Source: an uncultured Gammaproteobacteria bacterium
Lineage (GTDB): Bacteria > Patescibacteriota > Microgenomatia > Levybacterales > GWA1-39-11
Reading direction: 5' to 3'
NCBI GenBank assembly: GCA_964504535.1
Contig: CAZDED010000004.1
Location: 44,115-108,114, forward strand
Length of the DNA: 64,000 nt
Shown: positions 32,135 through 46,907 of the stretch, in pieces
Position numbering within the stretch: the stretch's first letter is position 1
Layout of the letters: each line of letters starts with the position of its first letter
Notes under the pieces: generated by a model
What the model was told of the DNA's origin: nothing
Database searches by the model: none
Seen by the model: only the letters and a program-made list of their open reading frames with translations
Position numbers and translations under genes: made by a program

Positions 32135-32854
32135 ATGTTAACCTTAAATATGGGTTATGCTGGAAAATATGACGACAGGGTTAAGGCTCAAGAGTTAAGA
32201 AAGCAAGGCCTCTCATATAACGAAATTCTTCAACAGATAAAAGTTTCAAAAGATACATTAAGCAGATGGTGTAAGGACATAATTCTCACCAAAAATCAAA
32301 AAGAAAGACTTTTAAAGAATAAGTCTTTTGGCCAAAAAAAGGGTTCACAGATTGCTGCAGACAATAAGAGGTCTAGAAGGGTAATTCATACTTCAGAAAT
32401 CTTCGAAAAATCAAAAAAAGAACTTGGTAATTTAAGTAAAAGAGACAGGTTTATATTTGGGATGGCTCTTTATGCTGGAGAGGGTAACAAATCCGACGGA
32501 AAAGCAGCTTTCGTAAATGCCAATCCACACTACATTCAATTTATGAAAACATGGTTTCAAGAATTTTGCAAAATTACAGACGATGAATTTAGAGGTTCTA
32601 TCTGGCTTCATGAGGGCAATAACGAAATAAAAGCAAAAGAATATTGGTCAAAAATATCAGGGATTCCTCTTTTACAGTTGCATAAAACTTATATCGTAAA
32701 ACGAAAAGAAAATAGTAGAAAGATAAGAAAGAATATTCACGAAAATGGCGTCTTTACAATTAAATTTTATAAGAGTGACACGCAACGAAAAATAATGGGG
32801 TGGATTTCAGCATTTCTAGGTGATAAAATAGCTAGCACTCAAGGAATTGAGTGA
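32135..32854 (+). CDS. Hypothetical DNA-binding protein: N-terminal resolvase-type HTH plus a C-terminal region with a LAGLIDADG-like motif (possible free-standing homing-endonuclease-like protein).
   Basis: HTH LSYNEILQQIKVSKDTLSRWCK; motif FIFGMALYAGEGNKSDG resembles LAGLIDADG (LAGFVDGDG); ends 13 nt upstream of the intron-containing tRNA. Confidence 0.35.
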   Translation: MLTLNMGYAGKYDDRVKAQELRKQGLSYNEILQQIKVSKDTLSRWCKDIILTKNQKERLLKNKSFGQKKGSQIAADNKRSRRVIHTSEIFEKSKKELGNLSKRDRFIFGMALYAGEGNKSDGKAAFVNANPHYIQFMKTWFQEFCKITDDEFRGSIWLHEGNNEIKAKEYWSKISGIPLLQLHKTYIVKRKENSRKIRKNIHENGVFTIKFYKSDTQRKIMGWISAFLGDKIASTQGIE

Positions 32855-32866
32855 ATTGACAACTAA

Positions 32867-33155
32867 TCCGTGATAGCTCAATGGTAGAGCAGGAAGCTGT
32901 ATAGAAATGCAGCTCCCGATAGAAATATCGAGATGAATAACTGGGCTAATTCGGGGAAATCCCAAAAGGACAATCCCGAGCTAAATTCCCAAGCGAAGCT
33001 GAGGACTTGTCCTGAGTCAGCCGAAGGATAAATGTGTAGAGACTATATACCCAGGACCTAATTCGAAAGATATGGTCATAAGATAGTCCAAGCCTTTTAG
33101 TAATAGAAGGGTTCTTGTAACTTCAAGGTTCTAGGTTCGAATCCTAGTCGCGGAG
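32867..33155 (+). tRNA. tRNA-Asn (anticodon GUU inferred), interrupted in the anticodon loop by a group I intron. Exon 1 is 32867..32900 and exon 2 is 33118..33155. No encoded CCA.
   Basis: Acceptor TCCGTGA/TCGCGGA (U1-A72, G73, as in bacterial tRNA-Asn), D-arm GCTC-AATGGTA-GAGC, anticodon stem GGAAG/CTTCA, T-arm CTAGG-TTCGAAT-CCTAG. Loop after splicing is CU-GUU-AA. Confidence 0.7.
32901..33117 (+). ncRNA. Group I self-splicing intron (~217 nt, compact IC3-like tRNA-intron type) inside the tRNA anticodon loop.
   Basis: P1 has exon ...GCUGU paired with intron GCAGC (U·G at the 5' splice site). P element aattcggggaaatccc, Q caatcccgagc, R gtgtagagacta, S aagatagtcc (GACUA/UAGUC P7 pairing). 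Terminal omega-G at 33117. Resembles Azoarcus/Anabaena tRNA introns (GAAGG.GUAGAGACUA). Confidence 0.75.
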
Positions 33156-34643
33156 CACCTTACGTCTTATTATAACGTGTTGATTTGAGTTCAATACGGC
33201 AAATATAGGCGTGTATTTGACCTCAAAAATTTCCTTGTTTTTTATTAAAATCTCCTCAAAAAAGAAGCGTAAATAATGCCTTTTTAAGAAATCTGGAGCC
33301 TGTGTATATGCTTTTTTAATATTTCTCGTAAAATATAGCACCTCTTGTATTAAATTTATGTCAATTTTATTGCCACCTTCGAGCTCATTCATTGACTGTT
33401 GTAGACTATTTAACTGCAATTCTATCTCATCATATTTGCGCTTAAAGGTATCTCGAGAAATAGACCCGTCAATCATCATGTCTTCCAACTTTTCTCTACG
33501 TAACTCGTAAGCCATTCTTTGATTTTGTATTGCTTGTTTCCTCCCGGCTAGTCCCTGTCTATTTCTCTCAACCAATTCTTTCGTCTTTAAAACAACTCTA
33601 TCTATAAACTTTTGCGTAAACTGAATTTTAGATAATTCTTTTTTAACTAATTTTTCCAAATCACCCACTTCTACATACGGAGCAGGACAACCATTTCTTC
33701 CTCTCTTTTGACAGTGATAATATGCTATTTTCCCTTTTTGTTTAGTAAATCTTTTATGCTTATGCCATTCAGCTGTATATCTCTGACCACACTCACCACA
33801 CTGGATAAAACCTCTCAAAAGAAAATTATGAACACGCCTTCTTATGAGAAAGTTCCTATGCTTTGCCAATACATACTGGCATGTATCAAAAAGTTCCTTA
33901 GAAAGTATTGGTTGGTGCTTTCCTATTTTAGCCTCACCATGCCATCTAATAAGACCGTAATAGAAAGGGTTTCTAAGGATTGTGTTTATTACGCTATGAC
34001 TCAAAAGAGCACCGCTCTTAGCCAATACATTTCTTTCACACAGCCAATCCTGTATCTCCATTATCGAATACCCGCCGGTTGCATACAGCTCAAACATCTC
34101 TTTAATTATCGGAAACATATAAGGGTCTGGTTCGCAAGACTTTCTTTCTCCGTCTCCGCCCACACTCCTATAACCTAGCGGTGGAGGTGTTGGCTGCCAA
34201 CCTTCTCTAAATTTCTGCATGAGGGCATCTTTCGTTCTTGCTCCATTTACTTCACTTTCCCATTGAGCGATGCTTGCAAATATATTTGGAATAATGCTAT
34301 TTGTACCTGTAAGGTCTCCTTCGTTCACAGACAATAGTTTTATGTCTCTATTCTTGAAATCTGTATAGAGTTGTGCAAAGTCAGCGACGTTCCTAGCGAA
34401 TCTATCAATCTTATAAATAATAAGTGCTTCAACCGGCTCGTCTTTTAACTGTGCAAGCATTTCCTGAAGCGCAGGTCTAACAGTAGTTCTTGCACTTCTT
34501 CCATCGTCTGTGAATATTCTCTTTACTTCATACCCATTAAGCTTTGCGTAGTTGGTACAAGCCAGTCTCTGATTTTCAACAGAAAAGCCTTCTCTTGCCT
34601 GCTCGTCTGTAGAAACTCGTAGGTAAATGTAACAATTTTTCAT
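33144..34643 (-). mobile_element. Large serine recombinase/integrase (resolvase catalytic domain + recombinase domain + zinc ribbon + coiled coil). Its 3' end overlaps the 3' exon of the tRNA.
   Basis: YIYLRVSTDEQ catalytic Ser motif, IYKIDRFARN, C-terminal CxxC..C zinc-ribbon (CGECGQRY...CQKRGRNGC). The probable start is the internal Met at 34643, since the ORF-track start at 34715 adds an unlikely 24-aa leader. Confidence 0.85.
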
Positions 34644-34698
34644 ATTAGTATTTAGTTCAAATTTAAAATAATGTAAGCCTATAATTATCTTATAGGAA

Positions 34699-35157
34699 TT
34701 AGTTGAGTCGTTCAACCTTGCTTAATCTTAATCCTTTCCTTCTCAAAAAATCGTCAACACTCTCAATGCTATTGGCATCATTTTTATCTTTTCTTTTTAT
34801 ATAAGTATTCTTAGTAGGAAGCTCCCTTCCTTCATTACCTGGAACTTTACTTCCAACCTGATAGGAACTCCCATTCCACTCCCTTTCAAGCTCTTTCGTT
34901 ACAAAATAAGTATTTGGCTTGTTAAAACCTGTGCGCTTTTTGGATAGTATTCCTGCTTTTATCAATTCGTCTATTAAATTTCTTATATGTCTATCTGATA
35001 AGCCCATATTCTGAGCAAGTGTTAATTGACTAGGATAACAATAATCCTTTTTACCAGCGTATTTAAGGAGTATGCAGTATAGAAATCTGGCTTGATAAGT
35101 TAGCTGTGATTCAAGAAAAATGTTGTTATCAATCATTGTAAAGTTCTTTCTTTTCAT
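34699..35157 (-). CDS. Winged-helix DNA-binding protein of the phage/plasmid replisome-organiser (DnaD-N-like / replication initiator) type.
   Basis: FLYCILLKYAG...YPSQLTLAQNMGLSDRHIRNLIDELIKAGIL pattern typical of mobile-element replication/regulatory wHTH proteins. Confidence 0.5.
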   Translation of the reverse strand: MKRKNFTMIDNNIFLESQLTYQARFLYCILLKYAGKKDYCYPSQLTLAQNMGLSDRHIRNLIDELIKAGILSKKRTGFNKPNTYFVTKELEREWNGSSYQVGSKVPGNEGRELPTKNTYIKRKDKNDANSIESVDDFLRRKGLRLSKVERLN

Positions 35158-35340
35158 ATTTATTCTTATTTATTTTTCTGTAAAAACGATTAAGAACGGT
35201 TCTAAGCCATGCTCAATCACAACAATCTCCCTCTTTTCATCTTGAGAAGAACATTTTGAATGAGTGATTTTGTAGTATTCGCCAACCAACTGGTATATTT
35301 TTTTCTTCAACAATGATATTTTCTTTGTTTCTTTCATAAA

Positions 35341-35592
35341 TTAAGAGTAGATGATTTGTTTTAAATCCTTTTGTGCTCCATAAAATCTATGGGGCTCAAC
35401 TTTAGACTTGTGAGAAAGAAAATCTTCTGTTAATTTTTTTCTTTCTTTAGTTTCTTTGAAAACAAAAATAACACGCTTTAGATTTTCTTTATTAGTTGAA
35501 ATCAATTCACAAGATTGAGAGAGTAGAAAGCTTGCTAGAAGGAAAGAATCGGTTGTAAACTTTTTTTGATTATCCATTTTTTTGATTTTCAT
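35341..35592 (-). CDS. Hypothetical small island protein.
   Basis: 83-aa ORF with no recognisable domain. Confidence 0.3.
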   Translation of the reverse strand: MKIKKMDNQKKFTTDSFLLASFLLSQSCELISTNKENLKRVIFVFKETKERKKLTEDFLSHKSKVEPHRFYGAQKDLKQIIYS

Positions 35593-35762
35593 TTTTATTC
35601 TTTTGTGTTTTTATCTCCCGTCTGATTTGGGCAAAAAGTAAGTTAACCCATTGTTCGGCAAACTCATCTATTTTTTTATCCTCATTGTCTCCATTCATAA
35701 TCTATAGCCAGTATGACGTACTGAGTGAGTAATTTGGCTTCAAAATATCAGGGGAGATTAAT

Positions 35763-36545
35763 TCACAAACCGGAGGAAATTGAGATGCTTTTGCTTAAAT
35801 CGCTTATGGTTTTTCTAATATTTGAGTCTGACGGAATAAAATTATCAGGTAAATCATTAATGTTTGCGTAGTTTTTACTTAAAGCGCCAGCTATTTTAGA
35901 GGTGTTATATTCCATGAGTGAAAGAATAATTATCTCTAAATCCCTTTTGATTATTTGTTCTTTTCTAACCCTATTTAGTGGATACTTTTCGAGTTTTTTC
36001 TGAACAGAAGATATCAGAACCCAATTTTTCTCTATGAACTCGATAAGCCCATTCTGAGTTGTATCTTTGTAAAAATTGATGCTTGCTACGCCTTTTGATG
36101 ATGTGTCGATTTCGATTTTCGCTTTATGCTTGAATTCATCTTTAGAAACAATATCTTCCATAGGGCGATAAGGGGCTGAGTCTCCAAAGTATAAGTAATC
36201 ACGCAGAAAATCGATATACCTTTTCGGGTCTAGTTTATATTTTGAACACAAATCCACAACTACATAATGGTCTGAGGTAAATGGTTTGTCGTCATCAAGC
36301 CAATCAATCCATTCGTCGTACTTTCCTTCGTAACTAGTCGTTCTCCACTTTTCAGGAACGTTTAGTTCTTTTCGCAACAAACGAATGTCCTGCCTAAAAT
36401 TACTATCAAGAACTAACCGAAGAATATTTAGAATCATTTCTTGATATTCATAAACCTGGCGTGGAGAACGTGTACTAACCCAATCCAAAAGTGGTGCTAA
36501 ATCTTTAAATAACTCCTTATCTTTGATTTCTTTCTTTATCTTCAT
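35763..36545 (-). CDS. Hypothetical protein (island cargo).
   Basis: 260-aa ORF with no family recognised. Confidence 0.4.
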   Translation of the reverse strand: MKIKKEIKDKELFKDLAPLLDWVSTRSPRQVYEYQEMILNILRLVLDSNFRQDIRLLRKELNVPEKWRTTSYEGKYDEWIDWLDDDKPFTSDHYVVVDLCSKYKLDPKRYIDFLRDYLYFGDSAPYRPMEDIVSKDEFKHKAKIEIDTSSKGVASINFYKDTTQNGLIEFIEKNWVLISSVQKKLEKYPLNRVRKEQIIKRDLEIIILSLMEYNTSKIAGALSKNYANINDLPDNFIPSDSNIRKTISDLSKSISISSGL

Positions 36546-36628
36546 TTTTATAACGTATTATATATTTTGGATTCATAATACAAAGTTATTGTAACAGGAG
36601 AATTATTATTCTGAAGGAGAAGAAACTT

Positions 36629-37135
36629 TTATTGCCACTGCCAAAAACCAAAGCGCTGTTCACAACTTGCAGCTATTTTCATGAGTTTATATTTATAAGG
36701 ATTAAATATTTCGCCTTTATCATTAACAAAATCGCTAAACAAGAATGAAGATGTCTCCCCAGATGGAATAGTATATCTTTGACTTTCAGGATTGTAGGGG
36801 GCTTTGTAATCGCTGTTTAGTGTGAAGTAACATCCCTTCCAGTCCTTGGCTTCTGCATTTGTGACATCAATATGCCCATCTTTAACAGTAACGTCACCAA
36901 CGAGGTCAGAAGTGTCCTTTACCTCCTGTGGAGAGTTTGTGGTCGATTTTGTTGATGTTGAATCAAACAAAACACCGATAAATCCTATAAATAAACAAAT
37001 AACAAAAAAGCCTATTATTGCATGCTTCAGTGAGTAGCCTTTCTTCTTTTTTGTCGGTTGCACTTCATTTCGCACCTGCGAACGATATTCCTCTTCTTCC
37101 CTTATTCTTTTCTTCTCATCTTCTGATAAAGCCAT
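36629..37135 (-). CDS. Hypothetical single-pass membrane protein with an extracytoplasmic domain.
   Basis: N-terminal charged region, TM helix AIIGFFVICLFIGFIGVLF, ~100-aa C-terminal domain. Confidence 0.4.
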   Translation of the reverse strand: MALSEDEKKRIREEEEYRSQVRNEVQPTKKKKGYSLKHAIIGFFVICLFIGFIGVLFDSTSTKSTTNSPQEVKDTSDLVGDVTVKDGHIDVTNAEAKDWKGCYFTLNSDYKAPYNPESQRYTIPSGETSSFLFSDFVNDKGEIFNPYKYKLMKIAASCEQRFGFWQWQ

Positions 37136-37237
37136 ATATATCTAAAGTATAAATATATCTGAGCATATTGCAAGCACAAAATATGGCATTCGTACCATAG
37201 TTCTAAACATGGCATAAAAGCCATACTAGGCATTAGC

Positions 37238-37444
37238 ATGGCGACTATTTATAAAAAGGTTGGAAATAATATTCGCAAACTTCGTAAGCGAGCTGGACTA
37301 TCACAGGAAGACGTTTCATCTAAAGCAAAAATAGACCTTACCACTGTAAACGAGATAGAAGGTGGACTACGAAATCCATCGCTAAAAACATTACACAAAA
37401 TATCTAACGCATTAAAAGCAGACCTCAAGGAGCTATTTAACTAG
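37238..37444 (+). CDS. XRE-family (Cro/C1-type) HTH transcriptional regulator.
   Basis: IRKLRKRAGLSQEDVSSKAKIDLTTVNEIEGG canonical HTH_3. Confidence 0.8.
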   Translation: MATIYKKVGNNIRKLRKRAGLSQEDVSSKAKIDLTTVNEIEGGLRNPSLKTLHKISNALKADLKELFN

Positions 37445-37566
37445 TTCGGCTTTTTTTCAAAATTCCATCGAAGTTGTCATAGCCTCACGGTTGCTTCAAC
37501 AATAAACCCAAGTCCGATGACTTTTATTCACTATTAATCCTTACTATTCTTATTCTAGGTATACAT

Positions 37567-40500
37567 TTGTACTACAATAAAATAATGGATAACAACCCAA
37601 AATGGCACGTAGATGAAATGATAATGGCTTTAAATGCCAACATTGAATATTTAGAAAAGGAAGGCAGTGAGAATATAAGAATAAAAAATGGTAAATTATT
37701 TACACAGTTAGCAGAAAGCTATATTTATGAATTTGAGCTTGAATTTTTACAGGAAATTGAACTTGAAAGAGAAATAGAGGTACGTGTTGGTTCCGATTCT
37801 GGAAGTGGTAAAGTCGTTTCTGTTAATGACAATTTAATTCAGGTTGAGATTGATTCTTTTTTAGGTCAAGATATACCTCAAGCGCATTTAATTATTTCCA
37901 GCTTGTATATCCTAAAGCTTCTAAGAGATAAATTAGCAGAATCCAAAGAAACAAAATCCAATGGTTCAATAGCAGAAAAGCTTTTTGGAATGCAACCATT
38001 CAGTTTCGGGTCCGACTTAGAATATCAACTTCCCCCAAGACCACTTAAGGATTCAATTGATGAATATAAGGAAGCAGCACTAAGACTATCGCTAGGTAGT
38101 GAGCTGAGCTTTATATGGGGTCCGCCCGGAACTGGAAAAACAGAGTTAATCTCCCGAATCATTGAGGCACTTATAGGAAAAGGGCTTAGCGTATTGTTAA
38201 TTTCTCATACTAATATGGCTACTGATGAAGCCCTATTGAAGACTGTGAAGTTTTTAATAGATTCTCCGGAATATAAACTTGGACAGATTATTAGGATTGG
38301 TAAAATTCATCACCAAGATTTATTGAAAACCGATTATTCTAGAATCATCCCGGAAATGGCAGCTGAAGCTGCTAGTAAGCCTATCCATGATGAAATCGGC
38401 ACACTTCAAATATTAGCAGACCAACTTAAAATAGAAATTGATGGAATAAATGAAATCCTATCTGATTCAAAATCATACGAAAACTATCAATCACTAATTA
38501 AATCGGCAACTTCTCAGCTTGATAAAACAAATCAAAAAATAACTGAGCTTGAACAGTTTTTAAAAGATACAGATGATGAAATATCTATCACAAACATTAA
38601 AATTGAGAAATTTCAAAACTCTAATCGACTATCCCAAATTTTTTCAGGACAAAGTTTAAGCAAATTAACAGATGTTAAGACACAACTACTAAAAAGTAGG
38701 GCTGCTCTAGAGGATAATATTGCTACGAATGAAAGAACCAAAAATTCTATTATTCAGGATATTGATAGTTCAAAAACAAAAGCTAACATCTTAAATGAAA
38801 AAATAGGTAGTATTGATTTTAGTAAAGCAGAAGAGGAATTATCTCGCAAGAATGATAATCACTTGAATTTGACCACCCAAATTAAAGAACTGTTATCTCA
38901 ACTTACTAACATAACAGAGCACATAATAACTGAAGCAAAGGTCATAGCAACAACGCTTACAAAAAGTTATAGCGACAAATTAGTTCTTAGCAGAGAATAC
39001 GACTGCGTTATTGTGGATGAGGCATCCATGGCTCCTTTGCCAGCACTATATTTTGCTGCCTCTATTGCCAAACAAAAGGCAATAATTATAGGCGACTTTT
39101 TCCAACTCCCACCTGTAACTAAGCACAAAGTACTCAAAAACAGAGGGAAAACTGAAGAGCAATATATGGCAGAGCAAGCCTTAGTAGATAAATGGCTTAA
39201 GGGTGATATTTTTGCAAATGCTGGTATCTCAGAACTAATAAAAAAAGGGGAATTACCGGATTATCTAAGACAGCTTAAGCGACAATACAGAATGCATCCT
39301 CAAATAGCTGAGCTCATAAATACGCTTGTCTATAATAAATACGGTAATTTTGGACTAGAATCCGCTGATATAACTCAATCTAATGGTGAAGGTGGGGAAA
39401 ATGGACCTAGGGTAATAGATGTTGAACCCCTCAAGGATTTTAGGGTGGGGATTTATAATACTAACTCCTTAAATATATATCCTGGAAATACTGACTCAGG
39501 CTCATATTACAACTTATTTCATGCACTTCTAGCAGTTGAGTTAGCAAAAACTGCGGTACGAAATGGTTATGAAACGATTGGTATTATTTCTCCATTCAGG
39601 GCACAGGCAAACCTTATAACCAAAATGGTTAAAGATGAAAAATCTTTTGATGAAACCTTAAAAGGTATTGATGTTGATACCGTACATAAGTTTCAGGGTG
39701 GAGAAAAACAGTTAATTATTTTTGACATTACGACTCCTAAGTCCACTAAATTAACTAATGATGATAAAGAAGGTGGAGATGATGAAAAACTCATAAATGT
39801 AGCTTTCTCACGAGCAAAATACAAATGCATTGTTATAGGCGACATAGAAAAAATCAGAAAGAATCAGAATGAGTCTTCTCTTCTAGTACAGTACATAGAT
39901 TTTGTTGTAAAAAAAGGCTATCCAATAATCGATGCTGGCGTAATGGTGAAAAACTACTTTCACTCAGAACAAACTGAAGATTGGTTAGCTAAAATAGTTA
40001 ATGCTAGTGATATCGAAGCAGAAAAAGACGATAGTGATATCTATAACCAAAGTGAGTTTTATAAAACGTTCTTTTCTGAAATACTAAAAACTAAACAAGA
40101 GCTTATCATTCATTCTCCATATATTACTCGCTATAGAACAGCACAATTACTTCCCATATTTGATTTCTTAAGGAAAAAGAACGTTAATATTTTTGTTATT
40201 ACACGACCTTATTTTGCACATAAAGATTCAATGAAAGATGACTCACTAGCAATGCAGCGGGAAATGGAAAAATTGGGAGTGGTTGTCTTGCCATGGGGCG
40301 GAAGTATTCATGATAAATTTGCAATTATTGATAGAGAAACTTTATGGGAAGGCAGCCTAAATATATTATCTCAGAATGAAAGCAGAGAAAGAATGAGAAG
40401 ATTTAGAGGAAAGGAATCCTCGAAACAGATGTTGGATTTTTATGGTATTAAGAAGAATATTGGAGAAATTGGGAATAATAACTTAAAGAAGTGTAGGGTG

Positions 40501-40809
40501 TGTGAGGGTCCAGGAAATTGGTTTTGGACGGAGAAAGGGATGTTTGGAATTTGGACACACTGCTTAATCGGAGGACATAAGGAAGGAAAACCACCAAGAA
40601 CTCAAGAAGATAGAGAGAGAAAAAAAGAAGAAAATAAAGAACTCAGAAAGAAAGCTAGAGAGATAAATTATGAAGGTGTTCCTCTGTGTCAAAATACAAT
40701 TCATGGTTCAGAAAAAATAGAAATGGTTAGAAGAAAAGGAAGGTGGGGAAAAGATATATGGGGATGCCCTAAATATCCTGCGTGTAAATTCTTGTTGCCT
40801 GTCAAATAA
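37567..40809 (+). CDS. Superfamily-1B (Upf1/DNA2-like; AAA_11 + AAA_12) helicase fused to a single-HKD PLD-family nuclease domain and a C-terminal topoisomerase-type C4 zinc ribbon; candidate defence/anti-mobile-element effector.
   Basis: Walker A GPPGTGKT; motif II VIVDEASM; III IIIGDFFQLPPV; IV RQYRMHPQIAELIN; VI NVAFSRAKYKCIVIGD; ~220-aa coiled-coil insertion between motifs Ia and II. PLD HxK(x)4D = SIHDKFAIID; zinc ribbon GKDIWGCPKYPACKF. Confidence 0.7.
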   Translation: MYYNKIMDNNPKWHVDEMIMALNANIEYLEKEGSENIRIKNGKLFTQLAESYIYEFELEFLQEIELEREIEVRVGSDSGSGKVVSVNDNLIQVEIDSFLGQDIPQAHLIISSLYILKLLRDKLAESKETKSNGSIAEKLFGMQPFSFGSDLEYQLPPRPLKDSIDEYKEAALRLSLGSELSFIWGPPGTGKTELISRIIEALIGKGLSVLLISHTNMATDEALLKTVKFLIDSPEYKLGQIIRIGKIHHQDLLKTDYSRIIPEMAAEAASKPIHDEIGTLQILADQLKIEIDGINEILSDSKSYENYQSLIKSATSQLDKTNQKITELEQFLKDTDDEISITNIKIEKFQNSNRLSQIFSGQSLSKLTDVKTQLLKSRAALEDNIATNERTKNSIIQDIDSSKTKANILNEKIGSIDFSKAEEELSRKNDNHLNLTTQIKELLSQLTNITEHIITEAKVIATTLTKSYSDKLVLSREYDCVIVDEASMAPLPALYFAASIAKQKAIIIGDFFQLPPVTKHKVLKNRGKTEEQYMAEQALVDKWLKGDIFANAGISELIKKGELPDYLRQLKRQYRMHPQIAELINTLVYNKYGNFGLESADITQSNGEGGENGPRVIDVEPLKDFRVGIYNTNSLNIYPGNTDSGSYYNLFHALLAVELAKTAVRNGYETIGIISPFRAQANLITKMVKDEKSFDETLKGIDVDTVHKFQGGEKQLIIFDITTPKSTKLTNDDKEGGDDEKLINVAFSRAKYKCIVIGDIEKIRKNQNESSLLVQYIDFVVKKGYPIIDAGVMVKNYFHSEQTEDWLAKIVNASDIEAEKDDSDIYNQSEFYKTFFSEILKTKQELIIHSPYITRYRTAQLLPIFDFLRKKNVNIFVITRPYFAHKDSMKDDSLAMQREMEKLGVVVLPWGGSIHDKFAIIDRETLWEGSLNILSQNESRERMRRFRGKESSKQMLDFYGIKKNIGEIGNNNLKKCRVCEGPGNWFWTEKGMFGIWTHCLIGGHKEGKPPRTQEDRERKKEENKELRKKAREINYEGVPLCQNTIHGSEKIEMVRRKGRWGKDIWGCPKYPACKFLLPVK

Positions 40810-40913
40810 TAAATCAAGGGCATAGTTTCCGAAGCATTTTCAGTTCAAATACCACAAACTTCGGATACTTTTATCATCTTTCGTTCTAATAATTTATACG
40901 CCATAATTTAGTT

Positions 40914-41132
40914 ATGGACATAGCAAAAGCAAGAAAAATATTGGAAGAGGACGGAAAGAAATTAACAGACGAACAGGTGCAACAATACATAACAACCGCA
41001 GAATTATTATCAACAATGGCGTTTGACGCATGGAACAAATTAACTCCTGAGGAACGAAAGAGGTGGAGGAAAAAGAAACAAACAAAATCCAACAGAAAAA
41101 GGATTACCAGCAAACCTCTTACGAATCGTTGA
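40914..41132 (+). CDS. Hypothetical small basic protein.
   Basis: 72-aa ORF; Lys/Arg-rich C-terminus; weak support. Confidence 0.25.
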   Translation: MDIAKARKILEEDGKKLTDEQVQQYITTAELLSTMAFDAWNKLTPEERKRWRKKKQTKSNRKRITSKPLTNR

Positions 41133-41152
41133 ACCCTAGGATTTTTTGCAGA

Positions 41153-41617
41153 CTACAAACCCAAGAGCTGCTTCTTTTTTGCTTGAAATTCTTCTTCTGT
41201 AATTATGCCCTTTTCTTTAAGTCCTGCTAATTTCTCGATTTCATCTAAAGGGCTTGCAACAGCGCTTGTTGGGCTGCCACTAATCCGTTCTTCGATTAGC
41301 AATTTTGCTTCCTCAAATTTACCATTATTGCCACCATTTGCATGAAAATTGATACTATTCTCATCTTTAGTGGACTGGAACATGCCACCTTTTGCTTCAG
41401 AACCACCAGCGAGAGTAAGCTGTATGTATCCCGCTAGCATTCCTGCTTTCTTAAGCTGAACGGCAACGATACTTTTGTATGGGATTGATTTGTCTCCCCT
41501 CAGCATACCTCCACCAAGCAAAAATCCTTTAACGCCTCTTTTTATAATTACTCCTGTTGAAGTTAAAACCAACGTCCCGTTATACCCCTTGAATTCTTTT
41601 ATATTTTCGTCTGACAT
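41153..41617 (-). CDS. DUF4429 (PH-like) + SHOCT-domain protein.
   Basis: C-terminal SHOCT motif LKEKGIITEEEFQAKKKQLLGL; N-terminal GYIQLTLAGG PH-like region. Confidence 0.55.
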   Translation of the reverse strand: MSDENIKEFKGYNGTLVLTSTGVIIKRGVKGFLLGGGMLRGDKSIPYKSIVAVQLKKAGMLAGYIQLTLAGGSEAKGGMFQSTKDENSINFHANGGNNGKFEEAKLLIEERISGSPTSAVASPLDEIEKLAGLKEKGIITEEEFQAKKKQLLGL

Positions 41618-41665
41618 ATTGCTTGAGTATATTTAATTCTGTATTTTAATACAACAACTTTTCAA

Positions 41666-41935
41666 CTAAGAGTCCATTCTCTTGAAAATATCTTTAAGCT
41701 TTTTCCCAATCTCTATATACTCATTCTTTTTTGCCTGCTGACTAATTTCATCAATATACCTTGAAGATAGTCTCACCAAGCAACTTGCCCCAAAAACAAG
41801 TGCCTCATCCAAGTCTTTTTTTGCAATTTCTTTATGATTGTCCGTACTCATAAAAGAAATTACATCTAAAGGGTTCAAATGATTTTTTCTATTGCAATGG
41901 ATGTATCCTCTTGAAGTAAGCTCTATGTCATTCAA
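41666..41935 (-). CDS. Hypothetical protein (TTG start in the ORF track; uncertain).
   Basis: 89-aa ORF abutting the upstream 178-aa ORF in a different frame. Confidence 0.25.
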   Translation of the reverse strand: MNDIELTSRGYIHCNRKNHLNPLDVISFMSTDNHKEIAKKDLDEALVFGASCLVRLSSRYIDEISQQAKKNEYIEIGKKLKDIFKRMDS

Positions 41936-41937
41936 TG

Positions 41938-42474
41938 TTATTTTGTACTTTTTTTCTTGGATTTGATTGCTTCAGCAAGAATAACCAACATTTTATCAAC
42001 GTCCATACCTATCCATGAATGAAGGTCTGTGCCCGAAGGACGGTGAGTAAATTCCTTTTTTACTTTTTTATATTTCCTATCAATGTCTTTTATATCTTCT
42101 ACAGAAAAGCCTAACAAACCAACCGGATTGAGCCCAAGCCTACGAACAAACTCTAACTCCTCGTGCATCTGCACTGACAGAAAACGCTTGAATTTTCGGG
42201 CAAGCCTCCTTTTGCCAAATGCGACCATATACTCAATAGCAACTGTGTCTTCAATCATTGCTCGTACTAAATCTAATGCCTTATCTCCAAATAATTCATT
42301 TTTTGTAGCTAAAAATCTCACAGAAAGTAAAGAAAATACATTTCTTCTATATATGCCTTCAAAAATATTAAGAAACTGATTTCCGTCAGGAGGGTGGTGA
42401 TTTGTTGCAAGTGGATTTACTAAGTCCAACAACTCATCAACGGTCGCAAGTAGTTCATCGGTAGTGCCTTTCAT
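41938..42474 (-). CDS. Hypothetical protein.
   Basis: 178-aa ORF with no family recognised. Confidence 0.35.
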   Translation of the reverse strand: MKGTTDELLATVDELLDLVNPLATNHHPPDGNQFLNIFEGIYRRNVFSLLSVRFLATKNELFGDKALDLVRAMIEDTVAIEYMVAFGKRRLARKFKRFLSVQMHEELEFVRRLGLNPVGLLGFSVEDIKDIDRKYKKVKKEFTHRPSGTDLHSWIGMDVDKMLVILAEAIKSKKKSTK

Positions 42475-42544
42475 TTGAGGTTATTATAACCTATTAAAAA
42501 CGGCTCGCTTTTTTACAATAGTTCGTAGTGATTTGAACTAAATC

Positions 42545-43726
42545 GTGTTATACTTCGATGAATTCCTGCCCAAAGGCAGGTTTTTTTGTATGAATTGGGT
42601 TCCCATAACTTCTATCTTTACAATTTTAGCTTTCTACGTTGCATGGGCTGCATTTTACATTGAAAGAACTAGTAAGCTCCGTGGAAAAAGAGAAGAAAAA
42701 ATAGATATTCTTAAGTCAATTGAAAAGGAACTATCACTTATGGGTAGTTGGCTAGGTGAGAACTATAACGATGCAAATTACACTCAACTACAAGACCCAT
42801 GGCACCCATTTCATATGGTATATGGGCTTGTAAGGAATGATGCGATTAAAAACGCGATATCTTTGAAATCCGTATCGCTTCTTTCAAATGATTTGCTTGA
42901 GGCACTCGTCGCTTTTAATCAAAAGATGGGAGGGTTTGAGCAGCACGTCAATAGAATGGTCCAATTTAATACTTCAGACCCCATCATAGCAACAAAGGCT
43001 TTCTATTATTACGACAGCACTTTTGCTAAATATTCAAGACCTAAGAAATGGCTAGAGTTTGAAAAGCTTGCAAAGAAACTGTTTACGGGCAAAAGATTAC
43101 TCCCAGAAGAAATCCATCTTGTTGGGAGCGTAAGAATCCTAAAAGACCTTCATGTTATTGGGATTGGAGATGAAAATAATCCTACGCACTTACGGTTTTC
43201 CTATGTAATAGTTAGAGACATGGTAAGGGTCGAGTTAGCTGAAGTTTCTAGGGAAAAATTGTTTAGGCAGCCACGGTTATTTTCAATGCTTGATGCACTC
43301 GTGGCATTCTCCTTTGTTGCGCTTCTTGTCGCGATTCCTGTTTTCACAGTGGAAGGAGGTGTATTGATAAAAAATATGAATTCTATTTCATTTTTATTAC
43401 CGTTAATTTCAATAATCGCTGTTAGTATATTTCTAGGATTGATAAAGTATGCTTCAATCGCTAGCAAGTATATTGGCACCCCATGGCAATCTAAATTTGC
43501 CGAAATTTGGAATGATACACTTAATTTTCTCTTAGCGGGGCTCGTTGGATATTACTTTGTTTTGGTAAGACTGCCAAAACTATTGGCGGGAGAGAGTGTC
43601 GGTTTAAGCGATTTCGTGTTGTTCTTTATATTCGCAATGGGTATGTTCGGACATTTATGTGTATTATCTAAAAATACGACCGAAGGCGTTCAGGCTATAA
43701 TGGAAAAGATTATTGGAAGACACTAA
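42545..43726 (+). CDS. Hypothetical polytopic membrane protein.
   Basis: One N-terminal TM helix plus ~4 C-terminal TM helices flanking a ~200-aa soluble domain. Confidence 0.4.
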   Translation: MLYFDEFLPKGRFFCMNWVPITSIFTILAFYVAWAAFYIERTSKLRGKREEKIDILKSIEKELSLMGSWLGENYNDANYTQLQDPWHPFHMVYGLVRNDAIKNAISLKSVSLLSNDLLEALVAFNQKMGGFEQHVNRMVQFNTSDPIIATKAFYYYDSTFAKYSRPKKWLEFEKLAKKLFTGKRLLPEEIHLVGSVRILKDLHVIGIGDENNPTHLRFSYVIVRDMVRVELAEVSREKLFRQPRLFSMLDALVAFSFVALLVAIPVFTVEGGVLIKNMNSISFLLPLISIIAVSIFLGLIKYASIASKYIGTPWQSKFAEIWNDTLNFLLAGLVGYYFVLVRLPKLLAGESVGLSDFVLFFIFAMGMFGHLCVLSKNTTEGVQAIMEKIIGRH

Positions 43727-44423
43727 TCCTTTGATACAATTCAGCACTATGGCTCACATGGTACCATCAAAATATTCCGCAGCATCAGAATTGCGCGCAA
43801 TCGCTCTTGGAAGAGTTGCAAAGAGCTTGCCCTGCTATGGCGCTCTACCGGTGCCAATAATGAGGCTTTTGGTCGACGAACAGCTATTACTGGAATCTGT
43901 AAAGAGAACCACATTCAAGGGAAAGGTGGAAATTATAGACTTACGCGGAGAAAATACTGAATATCTCGACGAGGAAGAACCTGCAACAATTGCATATAAT
44001 GACTATAGCTTTGTAATGGCACCGGCATATAAAGCGTTTGAAGGATACCTAATTTTTCTTTCTGATACCTTTGGGCTTCCAACTGAAACTTACAAAAACA
44101 GAATCGGAGGGCTCTATGATTGGGAAGCAAATGCAGCAGCTGAAAAGGAAATAGTTGAAGCTCTTGAAGCCAAGCTTGGTACTGACAAAGAAGGAAAAGA
44201 CCGTTGGAGAGAATTAAGCATGGTTCTACGAACATATCGACATAATCCTGCACATTTTTTAGGAGACAAAGTCGGAACATTCGAGCAAGCAGAGGATTGT
44301 GCAAAAGCGATATTGAATACAATAAATCAAATGACAAAGTATTTAATCGATAAGGAAGTTTTGCACGATGGCGACAAGGAAGACGAAGCAATTTGTGATG
44401 TTAATAATGAGCAGGTTCGCTAA
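43713..44423 (+). CDS. Hypothetical protein.
   Basis: 236-aa ORF overlapping the upstream gene by 14 nt; no family recognised. Confidence 0.4.
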   Translation: MEDTNPLIQFSTMAHMVPSKYSAASELRAIALGRVAKSLPCYGALPVPIMRLLVDEQLLLESVKRTTFKGKVEIIDLRGENTEYLDEEEPATIAYNDYSFVMAPAYKAFEGYLIFLSDTFGLPTETYKNRIGGLYDWEANAAAEKEIVEALEAKLGTDKEGKDRWRELSMVLRTYRHNPAHFLGDKVGTFEQAEDCAKAILNTINQMTKYLIDKEVLHDGDKEDEAICDVNNEQVR

Positions 44424-44510
44424 TTTCTTTTGAAAGCTTTTTTATCTCTTCCCATCTCTGCCTTAGTTCTCCAGTCTGGCTAGAATTTTGGAACGTGAGT
44501 ATAATATTGT

Positions 44511-44573
44511 CAGGGATGGGGAGCACCACTTTTTAGCCTCAATTTTGTCATACCCCGAGTAGGACGATCGAAC
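44511..44573. repeat. Copy A of a ~60-bp direct repeat; contains ggagcacc, identical to the 3' end of the tRNA-Asn gene (candidate decayed att site).
   Basis: Alignment by eye: ggggagcacc-ac-tttttagcctcaatttt-g-tcataccccgag...cgaacc versus copy B. Confidence 0.5.
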
Positions 44574-44578
44574 CTAAT

Positions 44579-45289
44579 TTATTGAAGATCGTCAAAAAAT
44601 TCTTGTTCTTTCTCTCCTAATGGTTTTATAACAGTTAGGAAATTTATGCTTAGTCCCTTCAATCCAGTCTGAACACGAAAGTCATCGCCACAGTCTCCTT
44701 CTGAGATAGGATATTCAGCTAACGCAGATCTGTTCAGTCCGATCACAACACCTCTGCTTTTTCTTGCTTCAAGAACAGCTTCACGAATTGTTTCTTCAGA
44801 TAAATTAAATGATGAGAGAGCTGTCCTTGCTTCTCTTGTAAGGAGATTATCATATTCATATTCCTCTACCAGATTGGATGCTACATGAGCATGCGGTTCG
44901 ATTGGTAATGAAAGGTGGCTCAAGAAACGATGTCCTTGTGCATTAGTTTCAGCAGAACCTTCACTGACAGAAATTGCGTAATCTGTACCATAATTTGCGA
45001 CATCTGACCCCTCAGGCAGTTCCTCGTATGGGAAATTACTCGCTGGAGTGAAGTATACATCTCCGATTTGTGGTACTTCAGGCATACCTGCATATTGAGG
45101 ATTTGTACAACCTGGGATCACGCCCCTCTGTAGAAGTACTTTCACGGTCTCGATGCTTGTTCCATGATAGGCGATACAATCCTCAGAAATTAACGGTTCT
45201 TTAGATAATCGTACAAGCAAGCCTTTTCGATATTCAACTGATTGATATTCAGCCGCTGGTATTACTCTGTTATCAGATTCATTAATCAT
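44579..45289 (-). CDS. Hypothetical protein.
   Basis: 236-aa ORF between the two repeat copies. Confidence 0.4.
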   Translation of the reverse strand: MINESDNRVIPAAEYQSVEYRKGLLVRLSKEPLISEDCIAYHGTSIETVKVLLQRGVIPGCTNPQYAGMPEVPQIGDVYFTPASNFPYEELPEGSDVANYGTDYAISVSEGSAETNAQGHRFLSHLSLPIEPHAHVASNLVEEYEYDNLLTREARTALSSFNLSEETIREAVLEARKSRGVVIGLNRSALAEYPISEGDCGDDFRVQTGLKGLSINFLTVIKPLGEKEQEFFDDLQ

Positions 45290-45397
45290 GCTCCGAATTA
45301 TACATAATTATTCATATAATAGGTTCTGACATTTTCTATCAGGGGGAGCAAATGATTTTCGATTGACGTCGTTTTTATTTACTGCTAAAATCCCTCC

Positions 45398-45652
45398 ATG
45401 ACTGAAATTACTCCAAGCTGTCCTGCAGGAAGTGGAGAGTGCCCCGTTGAATGTCCTATTTATTTCGCTGCAGTAAACTCTATGCCTCCCATTGAGGAAA
45501 TCGACCCATATATGATGCGCTTGTCTTTGCTATTTGCCGATGCATTTAATCATGAAATTAAGGTTGTTGATATAGCAAATGTGTTAAGTAGATGCATGAA
45601 AGAAACAGGAAGGAATTACCTTCAAGAATTGAGTGATAATAATCAACTCTAG
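45398..45652 (+). CDS. Hypothetical small protein.
   Basis: 84-aa ORF, Cys-rich N-terminus (CPAGSGECPVECP). Confidence 0.3.
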   Translation: MTEITPSCPAGSGECPVECPIYFAAVNSMPPIEEIDPYMMRLSLLFADAFNHEIKVVDIANVLSRCMKETGRNYLQELSDNNQL

Positions 45653-45663
45653 TTTTAAACTGG

Positions 45664-45736
45664 CGGGAGTCCTAGCGGGGGAGCAATGTATTTTTAGCCT
45701 CAATTTTTCTTCAACCCCAGTTGGATGCTCGAACCA
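45664..45736. repeat. Copy B of the ~60-bp direct repeat; its 5' part (gagtcctagcgggggagca) resembles the T-stem/acceptor 3' strand of the tRNA-Asn (candidate attR-like remnant).
   Basis: Shares tttttagcctcaatttt, accccag and cgaacc with copy A in the same orientation. Confidence 0.5.
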
Positions 45737-46060
45737 TTTGTTATAATGTCTTCATCTGTGAAGTACAACGAATACAAAATTAATACCATTGTTTGGTTGT
45801 ATCCCAGCATGGCTGGGTGGCACTTTGTAACAATTCCGGAAGATGTGTCTGATGATATAAATCATCAATTTGGAGATAGAAAAAGAGGGTGGGGCTCTCT
45901 ACCAGTTAAAGCAACAATCGGAAAGACCACATGGGAAACATCCATCTTTCCAGACAAAAAAACAAATACGTATCTTTTACCTGTCAAAAAAGGAGTGAGG
46001 AAAAAGGAATACATTAAAGCAGATACTAATGTATTATTAGTACTTGAAATAAAAGCCTAG
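45725..46060 (+). CDS. DUF1905-family protein (YdeI/OmpD-associated). The true start is probably the internal Met MSSSVKYN.
   Basis: Family-typical ~100-aa beta-rich pattern (WHFVTIPEDVSDDI...LPVKA). Confidence 0.5.
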   Translation: MLEPFVIMSSSVKYNEYKINTIVWLYPSMAGWHFVTIPEDVSDDINHQFGDRKRGWGSLPVKATIGKTTWETSIFPDKKTNTYLLPVKKGVRKKEYIKADTNVLLVLEIKA

Positions 46061-46094
46061 TGGCTTTCAAAGATCTGGTACAATACCAACATAT

Positions 46095-46502
46095 ATGAAA
46101 ATAGAAGATAGAACAAAAGATAATCCATGGAAATTGAAAACCCCCCCACTTTCCTCAGAATACGAAATGTATATTGACGAAAAAGAAGGTTCAAAAGTCA
46201 TCGTATGCGTAGTTGGTAAAACAACATTGCTTTATGACTACGATGCAATTGCCGATTTATACCAGATGCTAAAGTCTCATGGAGATTGGATGGAATTAGG
46301 TGGAGCAGACGAGCAGAAGCCAACAAAAGAAGGGACTGTTGAAGACTGGGGACGTTCTTCTAAAAACCCTAAAGGTGGTTGGTATGGTTTGAAAAAAGGA
46401 CTTCGTGGAAGATTTGGCGTATACATGCCACCACTACTTGAAACGCTTGGATTAGCTGAGCTTGAGCATAACCCAAGGAATAATAGAATGAAAGCTAAAT
46501 AA
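46095..46502 (+). CDS. Hypothetical protein.
   Basis: 135-aa ORF with no family recognised. Confidence 0.35.
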   Translation: MKIEDRTKDNPWKLKTPPLSSEYEMYIDEKEGSKVIVCVVGKTTLLYDYDAIADLYQMLKSHGDWMELGGADEQKPTKEGTVEDWGRSSKNPKGGWYGLKKGLRGRFGVYMPPLLETLGLAELEHNPRNNRMKAK

Positions 46503-46522
46503 CGCTTCTAGCTAAATCAGGA

Positions 46523-46762
46523 CTATTTATCTTCTGGCAGTGCATCAAACTCTTTGCGTTTTTCATCCATCCATTTTTGCATTGCTTCAGGGTCTTTCAT
46601 TTTCTCTTTCATTTGTTCCATCGCTTTCAAATGTGCGTCATCTCCTTTTTGGAACATCTCTGCTCCATGTTGTTGGCTGAGTTTGGCCATTTCATCAAAT
46701 GTTTCAGCATGAAACTCCATATCACAAGCACCTGCCAACTGATTACATGTCATTGTCTTCAT
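46523..46762 (-). CDS. DUF1059-family small metal-binding protein.
   Basis: MKTMTCNQLAGACDMEF start typical of DUF1059. Confidence 0.55.
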   Translation of the reverse strand: MKTMTCNQLAGACDMEFHAETFDEMAKLSQQHGAEMFQKGDDAHLKAMEQMKEKMKDPEAMQKWMDEKRKEFDALPEDK

Positions 46763-46907
46763 AAATTTTTACCTCCTTCCCATAAACATTATACATTAGG
46801 ACGGATTTTGGAGAGCTGTAGCAGCATAATAGGTTCTGAACGATTTCATTAAGTGGGGCAAAACAGAAGCTCTTTATCATACTTCTTCAATTTGATATCA
46901 TATAACT

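Follow-up and report, generated by a model that had tools for sequence, protein, structure and literature searches.

In this report, we describe an integrative element at a tRNA-Asn(GUU) gene in a 64-kb window (the whole stretch of DNA analysed, 64,000 nucleotides of contig CAZDED010000004.1), the large serine recombinase (LSR) gene of which appears to be remodelled by the reaction of its own product. The segment from 33152 to 44527 is very likely an 11.4-kb integrative, episome-like element that carries its attP site inside the LSR reading frame, and its integration would split that gene. Judged by its sequence, integration is predicted to truncate the recombinase and to cut off the codons of a C-terminal tail. 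The related contigs and loci used for comparison are referred to by L numbers and the homologous proteins by P numbers.

The island is bounded by two identical 8-bp cores, GGAGCACC, at 33152-33159 (attL) and 44520-44527 (attR), with a core-to-core length of 11,368 bp. These are the only two copies of GGAGCACC on the plus strand of the window; their flanks are unrelated on both sides, and the attR core also matches the right ends of the element family. Since the attL and attR sequences diverge immediately on either side, the crossover is placed within the 8-bp core. The block that is common to the att sites across the family is GGAGC (5 bp). For serine integrases only a short shared core is expected, and long tRNA-derived direct repeats follow the logic of tyrosine integrases. 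An earlier examination of the window from the letters alone (the sequence-only reading) had recognized two direct repeats near the right end of the island, here called copies A and B, and had noted that copy A contains ggagcacc, identical to the tRNA acceptor end plus CACC. This observation was correct, and the shared octamer is the att core. The same reading had let the island run to 45736; the island proper stops at 44527. That the core falls within the LSR frame had escaped this reading. A crossover in the T-loop, with attB centred on TTCGAA, was rejected for the LSR type of the window because attL and attR share only GGAGCACC. Such a crossover may apply to the element types behind the CTAGTCGCGGAGCA scars in L008, L006, and L015.

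Both arms of the att site are conserved in the family. The P' arm, cttacgtcTTATTATAACgtg (33160-33190), doubles as the codons for LSR residues ...HVIIRRKV, and a half-site of the form GGGGAGC(a/t)-N8-10-TTATTATAAC is located beside the LSR 3' end in 13 genome loci and in a circular attP. At the other end, the ~100 nt that precede copy A were combined with similar sequences into a profile, which was found to match the far ends of islands, 7.8-11.4 kb from the LSR, in eight loci (L017, L018, L021, L022, L023, L027, L028, and L029). The consensus of this right end (P arm) is TATAATA, then 11-13 nt that usually include (T)AGG, then GGGGAGC. The reconstructed attP forms a dyad, TATAATA-13-GGAGC-10-TTATTATAAC, and the symmetry is also present in the natural attP. 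The predicted attP junction contains TATTGTCAGGGATGGGGAGCACCTTACGTCTTATTATAAC (longer form, TATAATATTGTCAGGGATGGGGAGCACCTTACGTCTTATTATAACGTG), and the predicted attB junction contains CCTAGTCGCGGAGCACCACTTTTTAGCC (longer form, GAATCCTAGTCGCGGAGCACCACTTTTTAGCCTCAATTTTG).

The integrated, truncated form of the LSR gene is located at 33144-34643 on the minus strand and encodes 499 aa that end in ...VL-RD* inside the T-stem of the tRNA. The TAG stop codon (33144-33146) lies in the T-stem, and the gene overlaps the tRNA by 12 nt, which bears out the overlap with the tRNA 3' exon proposed in the sequence-only reading. The full open reading frame (ORF), 33144-34715 on the minus strand, codes for 523 aa from a TTG start; the true start is likely MKNCYIYLRVS at 34643, as called in identical contigs. 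When the two island ends were joined in silico, the LSR frame passed through the core (GCTCCCC, Leu-Pro) and continued for 37 residues to give a protein of 536 aa. The continuation is an orphan LSR 3' end of 40 codons, LPIPDNIILTFQNSSQTGELRQRWEEIKKLSKEISEPAHY*, at 44401-44523 on the minus strand, which follows in frame after attR-P is joined to attL-P'. It is read from 44523 down to 44404 with the stop codon at 44401-44403, and the 40 codons are counted from the core Leu-Pro. The orphan tail block, 44401-44523, doubles as the P arm and corresponds to the ~100 nt that border copy A on its left.

The continuity of the frame is not particular to this island. Joining the ends lengthened the LSR ORF in each of the seven CPR (Candidate Phyla Radiation) islands for which both ends were available, and the added tail read ...FQN.SYIGELRQRWEEIKKLQ... 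each time; the corresponding conserved signature in the window is FQN.SYIGELRQRWEEIKKL. Searches with the tail by nhmmer and hmmsearch gave matches at the far end of eight related genome loci. The mean pairwise difference among ten copies of the tail block is 0.30/0.20/0.55 by codon position, which has the pattern of, and suggests, translated sequence under purifying selection.

The reconstructed 536-aa LSR, used as the query of a protein search, gave more than 636 homologues; nearly all of them are 495-510 aa in length and tail-less. The tail is carried by two of the homologues found, P0011 and P0067. P0011 (538 aa) is encoded on three 9,676-nt contigs from three samples (L030-L032), and these contigs are exact rotations of a single 9,646-bp circle, with 30-nt end overlaps and 0 mismatches. 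The circle contains genes for the LSR, an HTH_36 protein, a DUF5659 protein, an XRE regulator, an HTH_17 protein, and a KAP NTPase, and its attP lies inside the LSR ORF. Tandem arrays are seen in L035, the locus of P0067, and in L021; the internal LSR of each array owes its full length to the P arm of the neighbouring element. A second LSR, 25-30% identical, directly follows a type-1 attR in L028 (1-1530) and in L029 (1555-3261; both on the + strand of the locus). The reading frame of these divergent LSRs crosses the same core uninterrupted and enters the type-1 tail (...WLPSPN... and ...WLPKPS...), and thus different LSR clades share core, frame, and tail in tandem arrays. Two other LSR types found at the tRNA of the window also end in ...LL-RD* in the same frame. 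The split layout is probably general for tRNA-Asn integrases of this kind.

An AlphaFold2 model of P0011, which is 61% identical to the LSR of the window, shows a folded body that comes to its end at the core codons and includes long paired helices at residues 344-391 and 397-440 (a coiled coil). Beyond the core, the model continues at low confidence, first as a disordered linker (496-506) and then as a pair of helices at 508-516 and 521-537. Because the core codons end the folded body in this model, truncation would strip an appended module and leave the fold unbroken.

The assignment of the enzyme is supported by a Resolvase domain (PF00239, 4.3e-34, residues 29-172 of the 523-aa ORF), a Recombinase domain (PF07508, 8e-16), a Zn_ribbon_recom domain (PF13408, 5.9e-12), and a match to the integrase family phrog_95 of PHROG (5e-108). 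The N-terminal catalytic domain has the motif YLRVSTDEQ, and 54 homologues keep S11, R9, and V10 without exception. By its domains and by the design of its att sites, the protein belongs to the large serine recombinases, and it is predicted to catalyze attP x attB recombination. An exact look-up of the 523-aa form with the TTG start gave zero records.

Related contigs from many samples were gathered by a look-up of the RpoD sequence of the window. One of these, L004, represents the same genome, with 100% identity over 13 kb and the same island. The LSR is absent beside the tRNA in L001, L002, L006, L008, and L009, and the pairs L003/L005 and L007/L010 have two other LSRs at the tRNA, 25-30% identical to that of the window and accompanied by different cargo. 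All three LSR types stop at the same T-stem codon, and similarity ends right after ...TCGCGGAGCA in every locus. The island is a real insertion because close relatives have none or have different islands. The LSR-free sites and the alternative islands thus confirm that an LSR island is located at the 3' end of the intron-containing tRNA, as had been proposed. Comparison with related genomes, suggested at that time as a means of finding the empty attB, has produced LSR-free sites at the tRNA and not the precise empty attB of this strain.

Beyond the close relatives, 13 homologous LSRs with 57-64% identity were found in CPR genomes assigned to Daviesbacteria, Roizmanbacteria, Gottesmanbacteria, Levyibacteriota, Paceibacterota, and Microgenomates. 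The LSR 3' end adjoins tRNA-Asn in 11 of the 13 loci and the end of another element, as a tandem junction, in the other two; the P' arm is conserved in all 13. The element family is widespread in the CPR (Patescibacteria) bacteria, and the host of the window is itself probably a member of the CPR.

From these results the following sequence of events can be proposed. The LSR would recombine attP with attB by a crossover within GGAGCACC; the element would thereby enter tRNA-Asn(GUU) at its final bases, and attL would restore the tRNA. The circular form would encode the complete 536-aa LSR, the last ~37 residues of which make up the linker and the two-helix tail, and it is this full-length enzyme that would recombine attP with the tRNA-Asn end. 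With the crossover in the Leu-Pro codons, the integrated gene would lose its tail and end after two codons supplied by the tRNA, and the tail codons would be left at attR, at a distance of 11.4 kb, as an unexpressed orphan. The full LSR gene would be restored by excision or by a tandem neighbour. The interval from attR to a glyoxalase gene, 44528-46860, would hold scars of earlier integrations, copy B included.

We infer that the element is still mobile and that loss of the tail alters the activity of the LSR. The strong conservation of the tail argues that it may matter in the episomal state, and our preferred reading is that it modulates directionality or activity, such that the episomal full-length enzyme would integrate and the truncated one would behave differently. 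Excision by serine integrases needs a directionality factor. A more specific proposal, in which the detachable tail is a built-in directionality switch and the full-length and tail-less LSRs differ in activity, for example as integration-competent and excision-competent (or inactive) enzymes, is a tentative one and less likely than not. If it were true, the topology of the element would set the direction of recombination, without or alongside a separate directionality factor, and tandem neighbours would restore each other's tails.

Several points weigh against the split-gene interpretation. No excised circle of the window's own element was found, and a scan of the contigs for the predicted attB identified only L014, L015, and L016, with no precise empty site for this element. 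The viral contigs searched contained no LSR relatives; a match to an 18-mer of the P arm in viral contigs lies inside a 937-aa ORF and was set aside as coincidence. The small ORFs of the island gave no convincing match to an excisionase or directionality factor. Copies A and B both carry the native flank of the tRNA gene (see below), for which simple site-specific recombination gives no explanation. The circular contig could in principle have arisen from identical tandem copies instead of a free circle. The tail amounts to only 7% of the protein, with a predicted local distance difference test (pLDDT) score of 50-64 in the model, and the truncated enzyme may be fully active and the tail dispensable. 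Finally, all function is read from sequence.

Some of these points would also fit a rather unlikely alternative, namely that the island is a fixed, immobile relic with an LSR inactivated by loss of its tail, so that integration is a dead end and the circular relatives represent a separate plasmid lineage. The failure to find an excised form or empty site would be expected of such a relic, as would the many decayed scars 3' of the tRNA in several strains and the truncated form of most database homologues, and the arrangement would match the logic of the SSV-type integrases (PMC8371274). Against it, neither core is damaged and both ORFs, that of the LSR and that of the tail, remain intact; the island also shows 100% identity across three independent samples (ERZ4216102, SRR12487035, and SRR12487045). 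In the AlphaFold2 model the truncation does not reach the folded body, and the tail is conserved in integrated copies, which argues for excision that is frequent enough for selection.

The second alternative, that of the sequence-only reading, takes copies A and B for attR remnants that duplicate the tRNA 3' terminus in decayed form, and extends the island as far as copy B (45736). We consider this improbable. The two direct repeats are present as described: 44530-44574 and 45691-45735 align without gaps at 78% identity, with an exact stretch of 17 nt, and the window has no third copy. Copy A does have GGAGCACC in common with the tRNA end, copy B matches the T-stem and acceptor at 15/19 positions by eye (17/26 in a scan), and clear tRNA-end scars exist in relatives (L008, ACTAGTCGCAGAGCA; L006, ACTAGTCGCGGAGCA; L015, CCTAGTCGCGGAGCA). 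The part that is common to copies A and B begins TTTTTAGCCTCAATTTT. However, this ~45-nt part holds no tRNA sequence. In L014, from a different species, an intron-containing tRNA-Asn is directly followed by tcatTTTTTAGCCTCAA, and in the short contig L015 non-tRNA DNA is joined to CCTAGTCGCGGAGCAccaccTTTTTAGCCTCAA; since the shared part is seen in both, it represents the native sequence that lies 3' of tRNA-Asn and that the insertion has displaced, not a copy of the tRNA. To the left of GGAGCACC, copy A has tRNA matches at only 5/18 positions, fits the P-arm consensus, and encodes the intact tail. The match of copy B, when the tRNA 3' end was aligned against the window, was no better than the best chance matches there, and copy B is equally similar to P arms such as gagtctaggactGGGGAGC. 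Taken alone, the likeness of copy B to the tRNA is at chance level; only the context gives it meaning.

Copy A is better read as P arm, core, and native flank, and is the attR of the present island, its right half (44528-44574, acTTTTTAGCCTCAATTTT...TCGAACC) being the B' side with the displaced native flank as in L014 and L015. Copy A had been supposed to be decayed, but it is not: its left half matches the right end of the family in eight other loci and encodes an uninterrupted 40-codon tail. Copy B (45664-45735) consists of a scar, gagtcctagcggGGGAGCA (scar B, core 45677-45685), and a second copy of the native flank, and would be a second junction of the same kind from which the tail-coding part is gone. 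The suggestion of attR remnants from successive integrations thus stands in part: several integrations can be traced, and copy A is the intact attR of the present island.

Older material fills the remainder of this interval. The segment at 44579-45652 is a remnant that comprises a 236-aa gene (minus strand), scar C, and an 84-aa gene (plus strand). Scar C reads TATAATA...GGGGGAGCA, with its core at 45342-45350 and a decayed tail start, and its flank is homologous to that of the first scar in L006 (L006#1). A look-up of the 236-aa protein (44579-45289) found only contigs with the same island. Scar D (46765-46860) consists of a decayed tail block, interrupted by stop codons, and of a degenerate core at 46853-46860, GTGGGGCA. 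Homology between the window and L001 restarts at 46867, right after scar D and just before the glyoxalase gene. Similar scars are present in relatives that have no LSR, with three in L006 and one in L008, ~100 nt from the tRNA. L001 has a P'-like half-site at 11549-11580, GGAGCaatattttcTTATTATAACc, and a decayed tail with a GGGAGC core at 12506-12640 before the glyoxalase gene, and a single 302-aa gene is located between these two leftover ends. The L001/L002 site would be the ghost of an older element and not a virgin attB, and the 3' end of tRNA-Asn appears to be an integration hotspot at which relics accumulate.

The weakest alternative, that the repeats and the ~100-nt element are a promoter or intergenic family with no role in recombination and an in-frame tail only by coincidence, can be dismissed as very improbable: the element does have TATAAT-like boxes, is often found 5' of genes (L006 at 13.7 and 15.4 kb; the window at 45.3 and 46.8 kb), and has copies in loci without an LSR (L006 and L001), but it sits at the far end of islands specifically in LSR-bearing loci (eight loci), falls in the LSR frame after end-joining in 7/7 cases with a coding-type substitution pattern, is physically fused to the LSR ORF in the circle and the tandem arrays, holds stop codons or truncations in its LSR-less copies as expected of scars, and gave nothing in RNA folding and Rfam searches of copies A and B. 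The promoter family, considered on account of the occurrences in L006 and L001, was dropped when the element proved to be the in-frame LSR tail. Structured RNAs were likewise rejected for copies A and B, with Rfam searches at permissive thresholds and folding of both strands giving no match and z-scores of ~0.

A few further observations concern the flank. L008 (9306-9425) and L006 (15428-15553) share a conserved block of ~55 nt, gccgaatctcatgt...cgagaccggatcc...ACTAGTCGC(A/G)GAGCA. The block stands behind a terminator, downstream of the tRNA end in L008 and of a scar in L006. Its appearance is that of the right end of a further type of element, with a shared core reaching back to CTAG, and L015 has a clean junction similar to these sites. 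In L014 (reverse complement, ~9216-9250), TTTTTAGCCTCAA is located directly 3' of tRNA-Asn in a species that differs, as does its tRNA sequence; this flank, conserved across species, might serve as a signal for processing, as a terminator, or as an integrase half-site. An exact match of 16-19 nt, ATTTTTAGCCTCAATTTTT, was noted between the native flank (45690-45708) and L007 (615-633), L001 (1308-1325), and L006 (1277-1292). These matches fall in the N-terminal coding region of a penicillin-binding protein of related strains. The copy of that gene in the window (22140-22156) has three mismatches to ATTTTTAGCCTCAATTTTT, and the similarity extends no further.

The target gene itself is split. The 5' exon of tRNA-Asn(GUU) (32867-32900, plus strand) ends in ...CTGT after anticodon position 35, as judged against the intron-less L001 and L006. 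A group I intron that splits the anticodon follows (32901-33117, plus strand; Rfam RF00028; absent from L006 and L001), and the 3' exon (33118-33155, plus strand) ends in the bases that make up the B arm and part of the core. The RF00028 match (32891-33110; 58 bits, E 4e-12) includes P1 with the exon end. The splice junction, between CTGT and TAAC, was set by comparison with intron-less relatives such as L006 and places the intron between U35 and U36. ARAGORN reported zero tRNAs in the window because of the intron. A similar intron is present in several CPR tRNA-Asn genes (L017, L018, L020, L022, and L029). To our knowledge, the bacterial tRNA genes with group I introns are those for tRNA-Leu(UAA), fMet, Arg(CCU), and Ile(CAU). 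The window is bacterial DNA of ~37% G+C, with dnaG and rpoD just 5' of the tRNA region.

Immediately 5' of tRNA-Asn is a gene for a 239-aa helix-turn-helix (HTH) protein (32135-32854, plus strand). Among the RpoD-linked loci, tblastn detected it only in the intron-containing L004 and L007. Homologues are also found near intron-containing tRNA-Asn genes in L018 (62% identity), L022, and L029, and a weaker match (32%) in L026 is far from an intron-less tRNA. The protein may be a free-standing, intron-associated protein of the homing type. In three loci an 82-aa GIY-YIG ORF is inserted just 5' of an intron-less tRNA-Asn (L001 11116-11548, L003 11614-12031, and L008 8888-9305), preceded by a decoy tRNA 5' part with a small palindromic insert (attccgtgatagctc, tccgccagctggcggag, and gtagagcagg in succession). 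The strains carry either this insertion or the group I intron, one of the two.

The remaining genes of the island begin with a core module on the minus strand. An HTH_36/DnaD-like protein (34699-35157) resembles a replication initiator and matches phage and plasmid replication-initiator families; homologues were detected by tblastn in L018, L019, L023, and L027, and an HTH_36 gene stands beside the LSR in L030 and L035. A DUF5659 protein (35341-35592) is present in 10 of 13 related genome loci, and a 260-aa protein (35763-36545) has homologues in L019, L021, and L022 and zero matches in Pfam, PHROG, or PADLOC. A gene for a membrane protein separates it from an XRE-type HTH regulator (37238-37444, plus strand) that is divergent from the core module and present in related elements. 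The HTH_36, DUF5659, and XRE genes agree with the winged-helix replication/regulator protein, XRE repressor, and cargo that had been recognized after the LSR from the letters alone.

The largest cargo gene (37567-40809, plus strand) encodes a Mokosh-like protein of 1080 aa with a superfamily 1 (SF1) helicase, a phospholipase D (PLD) nuclease, and a zinc ribbon (PADLOC MkoA, 4e-63, and MkoC, 9.5e-45; Pfam AAA_11, AAA_12, and PLDc_2). It combines an RNA-helicase-like ATPase with a PLD nuclease, as Mokosh systems do (MkoA/MkoB, or the fused MkoC), and is a putative defence protein. Further, sparsely annotated or unannotated cargo at 40914-44423 encodes SHOCT/DUF4429 and DUF5677 proteins, a 393-aa membrane protein, and a 236-aa protein; none of these genes is common to the related elements, and an exact look-up of the 236-aa protein (43713-44423) gave zero records. 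Other islands carry a restriction-modification pair (N6_Mtase/Eco57I and a specificity subunit; L003 16441-20096), a KAP NTPase (L030 4524-7412), or a Qat-like set (KAP NTPase, QatB, QueC-like, and TatD; L035 12333-17255). Elsewhere in the window, a 439-aa ORF (24814-26133, minus strand) has a G+C content of 57% in a genome of 37%; its counterparts in related strains have no Pfam match and vary from 372 to 443 aa in length.

Serine integrases are valued for genome engineering in that the direction of the reaction is simply controlled, and research into how this control arises is active. If a large natural family does have its gene remodelled by its own reaction, these enzymes would have a new regulatory layout, and the archaeal "suicidal" integrases would have a serine-type counterpart in bacteria. 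The results also define a widespread family of mobile elements in the CPR, the mobilome of which is poorly known: plasmid-like, targeted to tRNA-Asn, and equipped with defence genes (Mokosh-like, restriction-modification, KAP NTPase, and Qat). The exact att sites and both forms of the LSR are now available for direct testing. A full-text literature search identified no serine integrase with attP in its own gene and no description of this CPR element family, which is absence of evidence within the texts searched; in those texts, an attP inside the gene of its own integrase was found described only for tyrosine integrases of archaeal viruses. The island itself is of an ordinary kind; its novelty lies in the split recombinase gene and in how large the family is.

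Among known systems, the nearest by enzyme are the LSR integrative elements, such as those of phiC31, Bxb1, A118, SPbeta (SprA), and SCCmec (Ccr). The element in the window shares with them the Resolvase, Recombinase, and zinc ribbon domains, the long coiled coil, the short shared core, the attP of ~50 bp with an imperfect inverted repeat, and a recombinase gene at the edge of the element. It differs in that it targets and rebuilds the 3' end of a tRNA gene, which is unusual for serine integrases, in that its attP is inside the recombinase ORF and integration would remove a conserved C-terminal module, and in that its hosts are CPR bacteria, in which it forms a small plasmid-like island with a defence gene. 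With the classical tRNA-linked islands of tyrosine integrases it has in common insertion at a tRNA 3' end, a recombinase beside the tRNA, elements and scars accreted at one hotspot, and defence cargo. In contrast to those islands, the recombinase is of the serine type and the core is 5-8 bp rather than tens of base pairs of tRNA sequence.

A change in the C-terminus of a protein upon integration has a parallel in the mycobacteriophages. In the work of Broussard et al. of 2013, phages such as BPs reportedly use integration-dependent immunity, with attP inside a phage gene. There, integration alters the C-terminus, and hence the behaviour, of the product of the gene that bears attP, and here it would do likewise. 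In BPs, however, the affected gene is the repressor, the integrase is of the tyrosine type, and the part removed is a degradation tag, whereas in the window it is the recombinase itself that is affected.

The closest likeness in layout is to the archaeal integrases of the SSV type, the "suicidal" or class I enzymes, in which attP lies in the ORF and the gene is partitioned upon integration into a tRNA gene (PMC7253208, PMC8371274). The integrase ORF of the window likewise contains attP and is partitioned at the tRNA, with a full-length ORF on the circle of L030-L032. In both cases an episomal copy can supply the complete enzyme, and integrated copies tend to decay into scars. The SSV-type enzymes are found in archaea and belong to the tyrosine family, and in SSV both pieces of the divided gene are substantial, whereas the present element detaches no more than the last ~37-47 codons and keeps the folded body intact. 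As a serine recombinase, the LSR is not a member of the SSV type, and it would be analogous to those integrases in behaviour only.

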